From assembly GCF_003334385.1 (NCBI RefSeq), contig NZ_QOWN01000012.1: 64,000 bases of DNA. The stretch is one strand, 5' to 3'. The translations under genes were made by a program, and so were the position numbers. Shown one piece after another: positions 10,277-17,303 of this stretch (position 1 is its first letter; the number at the start of each line of letters is the position of its first letter). Under the pieces are notes generated by a model, which did no database searches, was not told the origin of the DNA, and worked only from the letters and a program-made list of their open reading frames with translations. This DNA comes from Escherichia coli (GTDB taxonomy: Bacteria; Pseudomonadota; Gammaproteobacteria; Enterobacterales; Enterobacteriaceae).

Positions 10277-11371
10277 ATGGCACAACAGACTCCTTTGTAC
10301 GAACAACACACGCTTTGCGGCGCTCGCATGGTGGATTTCCACGGCTGGATGATGCCGCTGCATTACGGTTCGCAAATCGACGAACATCATGCGGTACGTA
10401 CCGATGCCGGAATGTTTGATGTGTCACATATGACCATCGTCGATCTTCGCGGCAGCCGCACCCGGGAGTTTCTGCGTTATCTGCTGGCGAACGATGTGGC
10501 GAAGCTCACCAAAAGCGGCAAAGCCCTTTACTCGGGGATGTTGAATGCCTCTGGCGGTGTGATAGATGACCTCATCGTCTACTACTTTACTGAAGATTTC
10601 TTCCGCCTCGTTGTTAACTCCGCCACCCGCGAAAAAGACCTCTCCTGGATTACCCAACACGCTGAACCTTTCGGCATCGAAATTACCGTTCGTGATGACC
10701 TTTCCATGATTGCCGTGCAAGGGCCGAATGCGCAGGCAAAAGCTGCCACACTGTTTAATGACGCCCAGCGTCAGGCGGTGGAAGGGATGAAACCGTTCTT
10801 TGGCGTGCAGGCGGGCGATCTGTTTATTGCCACCACTGGTTATACCGGTGAAGCGGGCTATGAAATTGCGCTGCCCAATGAAAAAGCGGCCGATTTCTGG
10901 CGTGCGCTGGTGGAAGCGGGTGTTAAGCCATGTGGCTTGGGCGCGCGTGACACGCTGCGTCTGGAAGCGGGCATGAATCTTTATGGTCAGGAGATGGACG
11001 AAACCATCTCTCCTTTAGCCGCCAACATGGGCTGGACCATCGCCTGGGAACCGGCAGATCGTGACTTTATCGGTCGTGAAGCCCTGGAAGTGCAGCGTGA
11101 GCATGGTACAGAAAAACTGGTTGGTCTGGTGATGACCGAAAAAGGCGTGCTGCGTAATGAACTGCCGGTACGCTTTACCGATGCGCAGGGCAACCAGCAT
11201 GAAGGCATTATCACCAGCGGTACTTTCTCCCCGACGCTGGGTTACAGCATTGCGCTGGCGCGCGTGCCGGAAGGTATTGGCGAAACGGCGATTGTGCAAA
11301 TTCGCAACCGTGAAATGCCGGTTAAAGTGACAAAACCTGTTTTTGTGCGTAACGGCAAAGCCGTCGCGTGA
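10277..11371 (+). CDS. gcvT: Glycine cleavage system T protein (aminomethyltransferase), 364 aa
   Basis: [52 protein letters not shown]... Confidence 0.96.
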
Positions 11372-11394
11372 TTTACTTTTTTGGAGATTGATTG

Positions 11395-11784
11395 ATGAGC
11401 AACGTACCAGCAGAACTGAAATACAGCAAAGAACACGAATGGCTGCGTAAAGAAGCCGACGGCACTTACACCGTTGGTATTACCGAACATGCTCAGGAGC
11501 TGTTAGGCGATATGGTGTTTGTTGACCTGCCGGAAGTGGGCGCAACGGTTAGCGCGGGCGATGACTGCGCGGTTGCCGAATCGGTAAAAGCGGCGTCAGA
11601 CATTTATGCGCCAGTAAGCGGTGAAATCGTGGCGGTAAACGACGCACTGAGCGATTCCCCGGAACTGGTGAACAGCGAACCGTATGCAGGCGGCTGGATC
11701 TTTAAAATCAAAGCCAGCGATGAAAGCGAACTGGAATCACTGCTGGATGCGACCGCATACGAAGCATTGTTAGAAGACGAGTAA
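11395..11784 (+). CDS. gcvH: Glycine cleavage system H protein (lipoyl carrier), 129 aa
   Basis: [34 protein letters not shown]...; lipoyl-lysine context ESVKAASD; track start is a TTG one codon upstream. Confidence 0.95.
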
Positions 11785-11795
11785 CGGCTTTATTC

Positions 11796-11875
11796 CTCTT
11801 CTGCGGGAGAGGATCAGGGTGAGGAAAATTTATGCCTCACCCTCACTCTCTTCGTAAGGAGAGAGGTTCACAATT
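11796..11875. repeat. GC-rich palindromic intergenic element (agggtgagg / cctcaccct arms)
   Basis: Inverted repeat agggtgagg-N10-cctcaccct flanked by gcgggagagg / cctctctcc-like arms, between gcvH and gcvP. Confidence 0.5.
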
Positions 11876-11902
11876 CACTGCACGTTTCAGGAACCATCGC
11901 TC

Positions 11903-14776
11903 ATGACACAGACGTTAAGCCAGCTTGAAAACAGCGGCGCTTTTATTGAACGCCATATCGGACCGGACGCCGCGCAACAGCAAGAAATGCTGAATGCCGT
12001 TGGTGCACAATCGTTAAACGCGCTGACCGGCCAGATTGTGCCGAAAGATATTCAACTTGCGACACCACCGCAGGTTGGCGCACCGGCGACCGAATACGCC
12101 GCACTGGCAGAACTCAAGGCTATTGCCAGTCGCAATAAACGCTTCACGTCTTACATCGGCATGGGTTACACCGCCGTGCAGCTACCGCCGGTTATCCTGC
12201 GTAACATGCTGGAAAATCCGGGCTGGTATACCGCGTACACTCCGTATCAACCTGAAGTCTCCCAGGGCCGCCTTGAAGCACTGCTCAACTTCCAGCAGGT
12301 AACGCTGGATTTGACTGGACTGGATATGGCCTCTGCTTCTCTTCTGGACGAGGCCACCGCTGCCGCCGAAGCAATGGCGATGGCGAAACGCGTCAGCAAA
12401 CTGAAAAATGCCAACCGCTTCTTCGTGGCTTCCGATGTGCATCCGCAAACGCTGGATGTGGTCCGTACTCGTGCCGAAACCTTTGGTTTTGAAGTGATTG
12501 TCGATGACGCGCAAAAAGTGCTCGACCATCAGGACGTCTTCGGCGTGCTGTTACAGCAGGTAGGCACTACCGGTGAAATTCACGACTACACTGCGCTTAT
12601 TAGCGAACTGAAATCACGCAAAATTGTGGTCAGCGTTGCCGCCGATATTATGGCGCTGGTGCTGTTAACTGCGCCGGGTAAACAGGGCGCGGATATTGTT
12701 TTTGGTTCGGCGCAACGCTTCGGCGTGCCGATGGGCTACGGTGGCCCACACGCGGCATTCTTTGCGGCGAAAGATGAATACAAACGCTCAATGCCGGGCC
12801 GTATTATCGGTGTATCGAAAGATGCAGCTGGCAATACCGCGCTGCGCATGGCGATGCAGACTCGCGAGCAACATATCCGCCGTGAGAAAGCGAACTCCAA
12901 CATTTGTACTTCCCAGGTACTGCTGGCAAACATCGCCAGCCTGTATGCCGTTTATCACGGCCCGGTTGGCCTGAAACGTATCGCTAACCGCATTCACCGT
13001 CTGACCGATATCCTGGCGGCGGGCCTGCAACAAAAAGGTCTGAAACTGCGCCATGCGCACTATTTCGACACCTTGTGTGTGGAAGTGGCCGACAAAGCGG
13101 GCGTACTGACGCGTGCCGAAGCGGCTGAAATCAACCTGCGTAGCGATATTCTGAACGCGGTTGGGATCACCCTTGATGAAACAACCACGCGTGAAAACGT
13201 AATGCAGCTTTTCAACGTGCTGCTGGGCGATAACCACGGCCTGGACATCGACACGCTGGACAAAGACGTGGCTCACGACAGCCGCTCTATCCAGCCTGCG
13301 ATGCTGCGCGACGACGAAATCCTCACCCATCCGGTGTTTAATCGCTACCACAGCGAAACCGAAATGATGCGCTATATGCACTCGCTGGAGCGTAAAGATC
13401 TGGCGCTGAATCAGGCGATGATCCCGCTGGGTTCCTGCACCATGAAACTGAACGCCGCCGCCGAGATGATCCCAATCACCTGGCCGGAATTTGCCGAACT
13501 GCACCCGTTCTGCCCGCCGGAGCAGGCCGAAGGTTATCAGCAGATGATTGCGCAGCTGGCTGACTGGCTGGTGAAACTGACCGGTTACGACGCCGTTTGT
13601 ATGCAGCCGAACTCTGGCGCACAGGGCGAATACGCGGGCCTGCTGGCGATTCGTCATTATCATGAAAGCCGCAACGAAGGGCATCGCGATATCTGCCTGA
13701 TCCCGGCTTCTGCGCACGGAACTAACCCCGCTTCTGCACATATGGCAGGAATGCAGGTGGTGGTTGTGGCGTGTGATAAAAACGGCAACATCGATCTGAC
13801 TGATCTGCGCGCGAAAGCGGAACAGGCGGGCGATAACCTCTCCTGTATCATGGTGACTTATCCTTCTACCCACGGCGTGTATGAAGAAACGATCCGTGAA
13901 GTGTGTGAAGTCGTGCATCAGTTCGGCGGTCAGGTTTACCTTGATGGCGCGAACATGAACGCCCAGGTTGGCATCACCTCGCCGGGCTTTATTGGTGCGG
14001 ACGTTTCACACCTTAACCTACATAAAACTTTCTGCATTCCGCACGGCGGTGGTGGTCCGGGTATGGGACCGATCGGCGTGAAAGCGCATTTGGCACCGTT
14101 TGTACCGGGTCATAGCGTGGTGCAAATCGAAGGCATGTTAACCCGTCAGGGCGCGGTTTCTGCGGCACCGTTCGGTAGCGCCTCTATCCTGCCAATCAGC
14201 TGGATGTACATCCGCATGATGGGCGCAGAAGGGCTGAAAAAAGCAAGCCAGGTGGCAATCCTCAACGCCAACTATATTGCCAGCCGCCTGCAGGATGCCT
14301 TCCCGGTGCTGTATACCGGTCGCGACGGTCGCGTGGCGCACGAATGTATTCTCGATATTCGCCCGCTGAAAGAAGAAACCGGCATCAGCGAGCTGGATAT
14401 TGCCAAGCGCCTGATCGACTACGGTTTCCACGCGCCGACGATGTCGTTCCCGGTGGCGGGTACGCTGATGGTTGAACCGACTGAATCTGAAAGCAAAGTG
14501 GAACTGGATCGCTTTATCGACGCGATGCTGGCTATCCGCGCAGAAATTGACCAGGTGAAAGCCGGTGTCTGGCCGCTGGAAGATAACCCGCTGGTGAACG
14601 CGCCGCACATTCAGAGCGAACTGGTCGCCGAGTGGGCGCATCCGTACAGCCGTGAAGTTGCGGTATTCCCGGCAGGTGTGGCAGACAAATACTGGCCGAC
14701 AGTGAAACGTCTGGATGATGTTTACGGCGACCGTAACCTGTTCTGCTCCTGCGTACCGATTAGCGAATACCAGTAA
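11903..14776 (+). CDS. gcvP: Glycine dehydrogenase (decarboxylating), P protein, 957 aa
   Basis: [34 protein letters not shown]...; PLP-dependent; length matches K-12. Confidence 0.96.
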
Positions 14777-14798
14777 TTCACTGATTCGACTATTTTCT

Positions 14799-14821
14799 AA
14801 AGGCGCTTCGGCGCCTTTTTA
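14799..14821 (+). terminator. Rho-independent terminator of gcvTHP
   Basis: aaaggcgcttcggcgccttttt: perfect hairpin with GC stem and T-run. Confidence 0.8.
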
Positions 14822-14855
14822 GTCAGATGACAAAGTACAAAAGTGCTCAGACAGT

Positions 14856-14957
14856 CCCCTCGCCCCTTTGGGGAGAGGGTTAGGGTGAGGGGAACAGGCC
14901 GGCACTGGCGCGAATATTTACCCTCACCCCGGCCCTCTCCCTGAAAGGGCGAGGGGG
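14856..14957. repeat. Long GC-rich inverted repeat (two ~37-bp arms separated by a ~28-bp spacer)
   Basis: Arm 1 cccctcgcccctttggggagagggttagggtgagggg; arm 2 ccctcaccccggccctctccctgaaagggcgaggggg is close to its reverse complement. Same motif family as the element after gcvH. Confidence 0.6.
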
Positions 14958-15042
14958 AAAAGCGTGCCAACATTGAAGATTGAGCCAGTTTGTTAGCAAT
15001 CTCAAAGATACGTCAACGAATTAATTTTTCTCGGAAAAACAA

Positions 15043-15786
15043 ATGGCTATAGCACTTGTGACTGGTGGCAGTCGCGGCATCGGGCGGGCAACTGCATTAC
15101 TGTTGGCGCAAGAAGGGTATACGGTGGCGGTTAATTATCAGCAAAACCTCCACGCGGCGCAGGAAGTGATGAACTTAATAACGCAAGCCGGTGGCAAAGC
15201 ATTCGTGCTCCAGGCGGATATCAGCGACGAAAACCAGGTCGTTGCGATGTTTACAGCAATCGATCAGCACGATGAACCGCTAGCAGCGCTGGTCAATAAC
15301 GCCGGGATCTTGTTTACCCAGTGCACCGTTGAAAACCTTACCGCAGAGCGAATCAACCGAGTACTTTCCACCAACGTGACGGGATATTTTCTCTGCTGCC
15401 GCGAGGCGGTAAAACGCATGGCGCTTAAAAATGGTGGCAGTGGCGGCGCTATCGTCAATGTCTCTTCGGTGGCCTCACGGTTGGGTTCGCCAGGGGAATA
15501 TGTTGATTACGCGGCATCGAAAGGGGCGATTGATACGTTAACCACCGGACTATCGCTGGAAGTCGCCGCGCAGGGGATCCGCGTTAACTGCGTGCGGCCA
15601 GGGTTTATTTATACCGAAATGCACGCCAGCGGCGGCGAGCCTGGACGCGTCGATCGCGTTAAGTCGAACATCCCCATGCAGCGTGGTGGACAGGCAGAAG
15701 AGGTCGCGCAGGCCATTGTCTGGCTACTAAGTGATAAAGCCTCTTACGTCACGGGAAGTTTTATCGATTTGGCGGGCGGGAAATAA
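15043..15786 (+). CDS. ygfF: Short-chain dehydrogenase/reductase family oxidoreductase, 247 aa
   Basis: MAIALVTGGSRGIGRATALLLAQEGY... (TGxxxGIG NAD(P)-binding motif); catalytic YxxxK (YAASK). Confidence 0.9.
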   Translation: MAIALVTGGSRGIGRATALLLAQEGYTVAVNYQQNLHAAQEVMNLITQAGGKAFVLQADISDENQVVAMFTAIDQHDEPLAALVNNAGILFTQCTVENLTAERINRVLSTNVTGYFLCCREAVKRMALKNGGSGGAIVNVSSVASRLGSPGEYVDYAASKGAIDTLTTGLSLEVAAQGIRVNCVRPGFIYTEMHASGGEPGRVDRVKSNIPMQRGGQAEEVAQAIVWLLSDKASYVTGSFIDLAGGK

Positions 15787-15842
15787 AACAGGGAAGTTGT
15801 CTGACCGGATGCAACAAGTATTGCATCCGGTACTTCATCGAC

Positions 15843-17303
<1,461 letters not shown>

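Follow-up and report, generated by a model that had tools for sequence, protein, structure and literature searches.

The spacer between gcvH and gcvP of Escherichia coli is occupied, judging from its sequence, by a degenerate head-to-head pair of BoxC (PIT/TMECO) repeats that has decayed by mutation. We consider it probable that the central hairpin of this pair ends the stable gcvT–gcvH RNA by acting as an exonuclease barrier, so that the gcvTH message outlives and outnumbers the gcvP message. The analysed DNA is a 64-kb stretch (the window), and all positions refer to it unless stated otherwise. The locus is laid out as follows.

10277–11371, plus strand: gcvT
11395–11784, plus strand: gcvH, 129 amino acids, the upstream and more abundant cistron (from its translation; 100% match to annotated gcvH in MG1655 and BL21)
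11785–11902, plus strand: gcvH–gcvP intercistronic spacer, 118 nt
11903–14776, plus strand: gcvP, 957 amino acids, the downstream and less abundant cistron
14800–14821, plus strand: intrinsic terminator of the gcvTHP operon, GGCGC-TTCG-GCGCC followed by a T-run (from the sequence and from the Term-seq 'primary' gcvP 3′ end, 3046123(−), which is window position 14821)

The spacer is a fixed part of this operon in E. coli. The 291 nt surrounding the palindrome show 100% identity with BL21(DE3) and with derivatives of K-12, and they were found in 5426/5426 complete E. coli genomes. The spacer itself was likewise present in 5426/5426, with at least 95% identity in 5424 of them. The RefSeq annotation of MG1655 assigns neither a small gene nor a repeat feature to the spacer.

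An earlier sequence-only reading of the window had described an inverted repeat here, and we found it as described: AGGGTGAGG (11816–11824) and CCTCACCCT (11835–11843) pair exactly over 9 bp as an inverted repeat and enclose a 10-nt loop. The whole 64-kb window has only about nine distinct perfect hairpins of this length or more, and AGGGTGAGG occurs three times against an expectation of 0.25, the third copy belonging to the repeat after gcvP. The same reading had added outer arms and had let the palindrome fill most of the 118-bp spacer. The arms do exist as an imperfect extension of the palindrome (29-nt arms, 72% complementary), but in RNA local pairing of the same bases is slightly better and gives two separate 8-bp hairpins (11794–11813 and 11846–11865). 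The three hairpins together reach about −37.5 kcal/mol, compared with −35.1 kcal/mol for a single long hairpin. The structured part of the spacer spans 11794–11865 and covers 72 of its 118 nt, which is indeed most of it, although the end had been placed at 11875, about 10 nt too far. Consistent with the structured element that had been proposed, the whole spacer has a stable predicted fold, with a minimum free energy (MFE) of −44.3 kcal/mol against −29.6 ± 3.4 kcal/mol for 200 shuffles (z = −4.35; 0/200 shuffles as good). Its established anatomy is as follows.

11794–11813, plus strand: hairpin 1 (UCCUCUUC-UGCG-GGAGAGGA), from the MFE fold, −11.8 kcal/mol alone
11816–11843, plus strand: central hairpin (AGGGUGAGG, 10-nt loop, CCUCACCCU), computed at −15.1 kcal/mol
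11846–11865, plus strand: hairpin 3 (CUCUCUUC-GUAA-GGAGAGAG), −10.6 kcal/mol
11847, plus strand: dominant in-vivo RNA 3′ end of the gcvT–gcvH transcript (Term-seq, Adams 2021 and Dar & Sorek 2018)
11866–11902, plus strand: gcvP leader and ribosome-binding region (…ATTCACTGCACGTTTCAGGAACCATCGCTC), conserved, unstructured and outside the repeat (from its near-invariance across Enterobacteriaceae)

A shared core with the repeat after gcvP had been taken as a sign of relatedness, and this relationship is borne out. An HMM built from 23 published MG1655 BoxC/TMECO copies and used in an nhmmer search of the 64-kb window matches both elements, in the same head-to-head layout.

11795–11824, plus strand: left degenerate BoxC/TMECO half (nhmmer match 11803–11824, E = 0.012, third best in the window)
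11835–11866, minus strand: right degenerate BoxC/TMECO half, inverted (nhmmer match 11866–11836, E = 6.9, weak alone)
14857–14955: intact inverted BoxC/TMECO pair, the repeat after gcvP, with type A on the plus strand at 14857–14892 and type B on the minus strand at 14955–14921 (nhmmer E = 2e-12 and 8e-10; strict TMECO pattern)

The right half sits where a head-to-head layout would place it and is collinear with intact copies. The block order in E. coli is CCTCTTCT-GCG-GGAGAGGA-TCA-GGGTGAGGA, compared with CCCTCTCCC-N3-6-GGGAGAGGG-TTA-GGGTGAGGG in the family. Hairpin 1 comprises the C-block and first G-block of the left half and corresponds in the alignment to CCCTCTCCC-N-GGGAGAGGG in intact BoxC copies, the central hairpin is built from both inner GGGTGAGG blocks of the inverted halves, and hairpin 3 consists of the outer blocks of the right, inverted half. 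The element thus resembles the described BoxC/PIT/TMECO family (Bachellier 1990s; Hoyne & Maher 2000; Holder et al. 2015, PMC4666352) in its C-rich block, short loop, GGGAGAGG block, 3-nt loop and GGGTGAGG block, in the head-to-head pairing of two copies, in its intergenic site and in its collinearity with the intact copies that other genera have at this site. The layout agrees with that of the pair after gcvP and of the five paired sites of Holder et al. 2015, and each block of the element lines up with its counterpart in the intact inverted BoxC pairs found in the gcvH–gcvP spacers of other genomes (L009, L025, L017, L028 and others).

By contrast with BoxC copies proper, the spacer element has 1–3 mismatches per block and is single-copy at BLAST sensitivity. 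Unlike typical BoxC loci, it lies within an operon and is stable species-wide, and whereas no function was assigned to BoxC, published data give this element an RNA-level role. The strict TMECO consensus, CCCTCNCCC-N3-6-GGGNGAGGG-N3-GGGNGAGGG, applied as a regular expression, had no match in the spacer and matched only at 14857–14891(+) and 14921–14955(−). A blastn search (word size 11, E up to 10) found no further genomic copy of the spacer element. The expectation of other copies in the genome holds for the intact family, for which searches with the pair after gcvP as query gave a median of 18 places in an E. coli genome, but not for the spacer version, which has 1 place per genome. Because the strict consensus is absent and BLAST returns a single place per genome, we regard the element as a probable decayed derivative of BoxC rather than an active or strict member of the family. 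REP/BIME and ERIC consensus motifs were not found in the E. coli spacer. An Rfam scan of 9500–16000 gave no family at the gathering threshold in the spacer, where it returned only a sub-threshold chance match (whalefall-1, 19.8 bits vs 37), and only sub-threshold, microRNA-like chance matches in the downstream BoxC pair.

The intact pair lies downstream of the operon terminator and before ygfF, and its halves are letter for letter TMECO #11 and #10 (Table 1, Holder et al. 2015). It is full-length in only 4296/5426 E. coli genomes, compared with 5426/5426 for the decayed spacer copy. The figure for the intact pair agrees with the reported instability of BoxC loci, which have been described as unusually unstable, TMECO sites being tied to local instability (Holder 2015, PMC4666352). 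BoxC descent and this tie also favour an explanation in which the spacer element works through its DNA, whether by forming a triplex or a cruciform or by serving as a site of protein binding or recombination, as has been proposed for BoxC/TMECO. A further point in its favour comes from one E. coli genome (L082, VTB96775v), in which the segment corresponding to window 11785–11902 (226–395) is a 170-nt spacer with a 52-nt palindromic inverted duplication and two central hairpins; it looks like a template switch at the palindrome, a type of rearrangement expected at such a site. However, the spacer does not carry the strict TMECO triplex pattern. Read by eye, its left half retains 7/9 triads and a duplex with two mismatches of a putative triplex. 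The locus is exceptionally stable across the 5426 genomes, and even for intact copies stable triplexes were not supported by in-vivo footprinting (Holder 2015, PMC4666352). We therefore regard action at the DNA level as very improbable.

Two observations concern BoxC-like sequences elsewhere. At 40419–40445 of the window, CCCTCTTCCC-TGC-GGGAAGAGGG forms a perfect 10-bp hairpin that resembles the first BoxC hairpin (HMM E ~1–3). It occupies a spacer of about 50 nt between the minus-strand ORFs 40455–41849 and 39625–40404, which from their position are probably ssnA and ygfM, and it may be another intra-operon hairpin of the kind seen between gcvH and gcvP. Additionally, curated Term-seq 3′ ends fall in or at other BoxC-type loci, at least three in number (MG1655 847200(−), 3781065(+) and 3959467(−); Adams 2021), a hint that ending or protecting RNAs may be a more general property of BoxC hairpins.

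Published Term-seq data place the 3′ end of the gcvT–gcvH transcript in the spacer. Adams et al. 2021 (eLife, Supplementary file 1; MG1655 Term-seq, three growth conditions) list the 3′ end 3049097(−) three times, with scores of 412219 and 171112 among its entries; beside the 412219 entry, the gcvP terminator end has a score of 36065, so that the 3′ end in the spacer scores about 11 times as high as the operon terminator. We converted MG1655 coordinates to window positions through the gcvH stop codon (3049160 = 11784); the gcvP start codon and the terminator served as checks. The 3′ end falls at 11847, 4 nt past the central hairpin, in two independent Term-seq data sets. An RNA with this end retains hairpins 1 and 2, and hairpin 3 lies beyond the mapped end and is missing from the stable gcvTH RNA. 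In the same resource, an ORF-internal 3′ end is recorded in gcvP at 3048758(−) (window 12186; score 29767; Rho-dependence column 'No') and another in gcvT at 3050602(−) (window 10342; score 105625).

Dar & Sorek 2018 (PLoS Genetics, PMC5927463) list gcvH/gcvP among the operon pairs that decay differentially, with the upstream gene stabilised, and report a half-life ratio of 2.21 ± 0.02 and a steady-state mRNA ratio of 5.03 ± 1.33. The latter is the gcvH to gcvP transcript comparison that the sequence-only reading had called for. Its suggestion that the element modulates gcvP relative to gcvT and gcvH is upheld by these established differences and by the 3′ end at 11847, although what ties the hairpin to the effect is a correlation. 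In their S6 Table ('E. coli 3′ protective structures'; PMC5927463), the central hairpin appears with an identical fold at −15.7 kcal/mol, and the sequence given upstream of the 3′ end terminates in ...CCTCACCCTCACT / ...AGGGTGAGGAAAATTTATGCCTCACCCTCACT. A study of Dickeya (PMC9239193) cites a SMRT-Cappable-seq paper for an E. coli end after gcvH, but no mention of gcv was found in the text and available supplements of that paper. Searches of the literature for gcvH in connection with RIL-seq and Hfq, or with stoichiometry, brought up nothing relevant.

These properties place the element close to the malE–malF REP hairpin and the other 3′ protective structures of Dar & Sorek (PMC5927463). It is a stable intercistronic stem-loop just 3′ of the stabilised cistron, it has no U-tract, the in-vivo 3′ end lies at the base of the stem-loop, and by the published values the upstream cistron is both longer-lived (2.21) and more abundant (5.03). 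It differs from the malE–malF REP hairpin in its BoxC origin and in that its exonuclease block and the initiating endonucleolytic cut are presumed by analogy. Most of the protective structures of Dar & Sorek (PMC5927463) lie within the downstream coding region, whereas the gcv hairpin is intergenic. Their model for malE–malF is an endonucleolytic cut after which 3′ exonucleases are halted by the hairpin (PMC5927463). Applied to gcvTHP, the element would be transcribed within the gcvTHP mRNA and would fold into three hairpins. The downstream gcvP part would be cleaved and degraded, and 3′-to-5′ exonucleases would stop at the central 9-bp hairpin, which would become the 3′ end of the stable gcvT–gcvH RNA. 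The gcvT–gcvH message would therefore outlive and outnumber the gcvP message. From this likeness we infer that the unequal half-lives and abundances are caused by the hairpin, as a barrier of the malE–malF type; the evidence for causality is correlative.

The main competing explanation is that the hairpin is a leaky, non-canonical terminator or pause site that sets the gcvTH:gcvP ratio instead of, or besides, RNA decay. The steady-state ratio of 5.0 exceeds the half-life ratio of 2.2, and the 3′ end lies 4 nt past the stem, both as a terminator would have it. The shortfall of the half-life ratio implies another contribution, and partial hairpin-dependent termination or pausing may add to the gcvTH:gcvP ratio. 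However, an intrinsic terminator has a G+C-rich hairpin followed by a U-tract, and the E. coli spacer does not: a promoter/terminator consensus scan of 11785–11902 found no site, and the tail, CACUCUCUUC / CACTCTCTTC, is not a U-tract. The Rho-termination table of Adams 2021 has no region in 3.046–3.049 Mb. Dar & Sorek (PMC5927463) called differential decay only after removing gene pairs with terminator motifs or known Rho termination between the two genes, and PIT/BoxC elements had neither promoter nor terminator activity in earlier assays. Weighed against the comparative points given below, which favour termination, this leaves a terminator or pause site as an unlikely explanation, although one to be taken seriously, and the exonuclease barrier as the reading that we favour.

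We compared eight E. coli haplotypes spanning the identity range, a small sample of related sequences. In 448 flanking coding nt there were 19 variable sites, all at third codon positions. The spacer varied in its loops: the central one had four or five variable sites and that of hairpin 3 had one. Only one stem position differed, 11835, where C changed to T and a G·U pair was preserved. Variable positions thus made up 1/50 in the stems, compared with 19/149 among synonymous sites of the flanking genes (p = 0.03) and 5/18 among loop positions (p = 0.004). This pattern is suggestive of selective constraint on the stems in E. coli, and it is suggestive only.

The central loop could also start a 24-codon upstream ORF that couples translation into gcvP. 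Its ATG at 11832 is preceded by a Shine–Dalgarno GAGG at 11821–11824 with 7-nt spacing, and its TGA stop (11904–11906) overlaps the gcvP ATG as ATGA. But the start codon is ACG or ACA in 6/6 sampled haplotypes of the 95–99% identity class (2622/5426 genomes) and is absent from a related Escherichia locus (L003). The Shine–Dalgarno is buried in a stem, and no gene is annotated there in MG1655. The non-conserved start codon rules out the ORF at 11832–11906 as a conserved gene; it is probably there by chance, and we give translational coupling through it almost no credence.

To place the element in a wider context, we retrieved the gcvH locus from 80 Enterobacterales species, extracted the gcvH–gcvP spacers and assigned element types by reading the sequences; a regex classifier of repeat types over-called REP and was not used for this classification. 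The spacers contain the following.

Intact inverted BoxC pair: Enterobacter cloacae and asburiae, Pseudocitrobacter, Buttiauxella, Siccibacter and others
Single BoxC, or just its first hairpin: Pluralibacter, Cedecea, Phytobacter
REP-type hairpins: Citrobacter, Lelliottia, Trabulsiella, Pseudescherichia
ERIC-type elements: C. koseri, C. youngae, Kluyvera
G+C-rich hairpin followed by a T-run, right after gcvH: Photorhabdus, Providencia, Serratia, Dickeya, Yersinia
No element, spacer of 8–23 nt: Erwinia, Rosenbergiella

All of the spacers of at least 55 nt (64/64) hold a hairpin of −15 kcal/mol or stronger, and these hairpins are of unrelated types. In the related Escherichia genome (L003), the E. 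coli element has a less decayed counterpart that forms one long, nearly perfect hairpin. Pairing across genera was 89%, compared with 58–70% in slid controls, in an alignment with register shifts; it is weak evidence because of these shifts and because palindromic repeats keep their pairing for DNA-level reasons. The final ~35 nt before the gcvP ATG (ATTCACTGCACGTTTCAGGAACCATCGCTC) are nearly invariant in Enterobacteriaceae whether BoxC, REP or ERIC lies upstream, which points to constraint on the gcvP leader, perhaps for translation initiation or for a regulator. Two spacers have expanded: to 445 nt with three tandem ERIC-like copies in a Providencia MAG (L077), and to 319 nt with an ERIC-like element following a hairpin in Serratia marcescens (L073).

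Two of the other spacer types have published effects on the operon. In Salmonella (S. typhimurium), Dar & Sorek 2018 (S5 Table, PMC5927463) report a gcvH/gcvP step-down of 2.64 with the 3′ end at a REP-type hairpin, and we found this hairpin to be nearly identical to that in Citrobacter spacers. The Salmonella/Citrobacter hairpin resembles the E. coli element in its position, in its published role and in the conserved gcvP leader that follows it, but it belongs to an unrelated family (GTAGGCCCGGTAAGCG...CGCCACCGGGCAA; L002, L007 and L013–L015). In Dickeya dadantii, a leaky intrinsic terminator after gcvH stops ~71% of transcripts (PMC9239193). Like the E. coli element, it is a hairpin directly 3′ of gcvH that lowers gcvP relative to gcvT and gcvH, but it is a canonical hairpin with a U-tract, which the E. 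coli element does not have. The Dickeya terminator, and the hairpin with a T-run directly after gcvH in Photorhabdus, Serratia, Providencia and Yersinia as well, are the comparative points in favour of termination in E. coli.

The comparison also bears on another possibility, that a mobile or recombinogenic repeat left a selectively neutral relic in a permissive spacer and that the 3′ end is an unselected by-product of any stable hairpin. BoxC, REP and ERIC repeats occur at many intergenic sites, the content of this spacer turns over between genera, the short spacers of Erwinia and Rosenbergiella do without a hairpin, and earlier BoxC work found no function. A relic would not be expected, however, to be fixed in 5426/5426 E. 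coli genomes with near-invariant stems and variable loops. Nor would it be expected to persist in a family whose loci are reported to be unstable and whose neighbouring intact pair is often incomplete. A strong hairpin in the spacers of all 64 species with at least 55 nt, and a step-down kept in Salmonella with a different hairpin, likewise argue against neutrality, which we judge to be quite unlikely.

A broader reading than the exonuclease barrier in E. coli is that a 'hairpin slot' directly after gcvH is maintained in Enterobacterales, holds gcvTH above gcvP and has repeatedly been refilled by unrelated elements, E. coli having a domesticated, decayed BoxC pair in it. We put this forward tentatively, as a plausible reading to which we would not yet commit ourselves. 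The slot would have been filled by leaky terminators in Dickeya, Serratia, Yersinia and Photorhabdus, by REP in Salmonella and Citrobacter, by ERIC in C. koseri and Kluyvera, and by BoxC pairs in Enterobacter. In E. coli, the BoxC pair would have decayed just enough to lose the instability of the repeat type and to keep the RNA hairpin.

The E. coli hairpin and its effect are already known, in that they are catalogued in published tables; the practical value of the present findings is modest because both had been published. A literature search for gcvH together with BoxC found nothing, and the BoxC origin and the turnover of hairpin types (REP, ERIC, leaky terminators) at the spacer position appear to be new, if modest, additions. 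The gcvH–gcvP spacer offers a convenient natural test set for relating swaps of hairpin type to operon stoichiometry. The element shows how one operon yields unequal products, with more message for the T and H proteins than for the P protein, and suggests that a repeat family without an assigned function, BoxC, can be co-opted as a stabiliser of mRNA 3′ ends. If the hairpin-slot reading is true, BoxC, a family otherwise without a function, would gain its first one at the RNA level.
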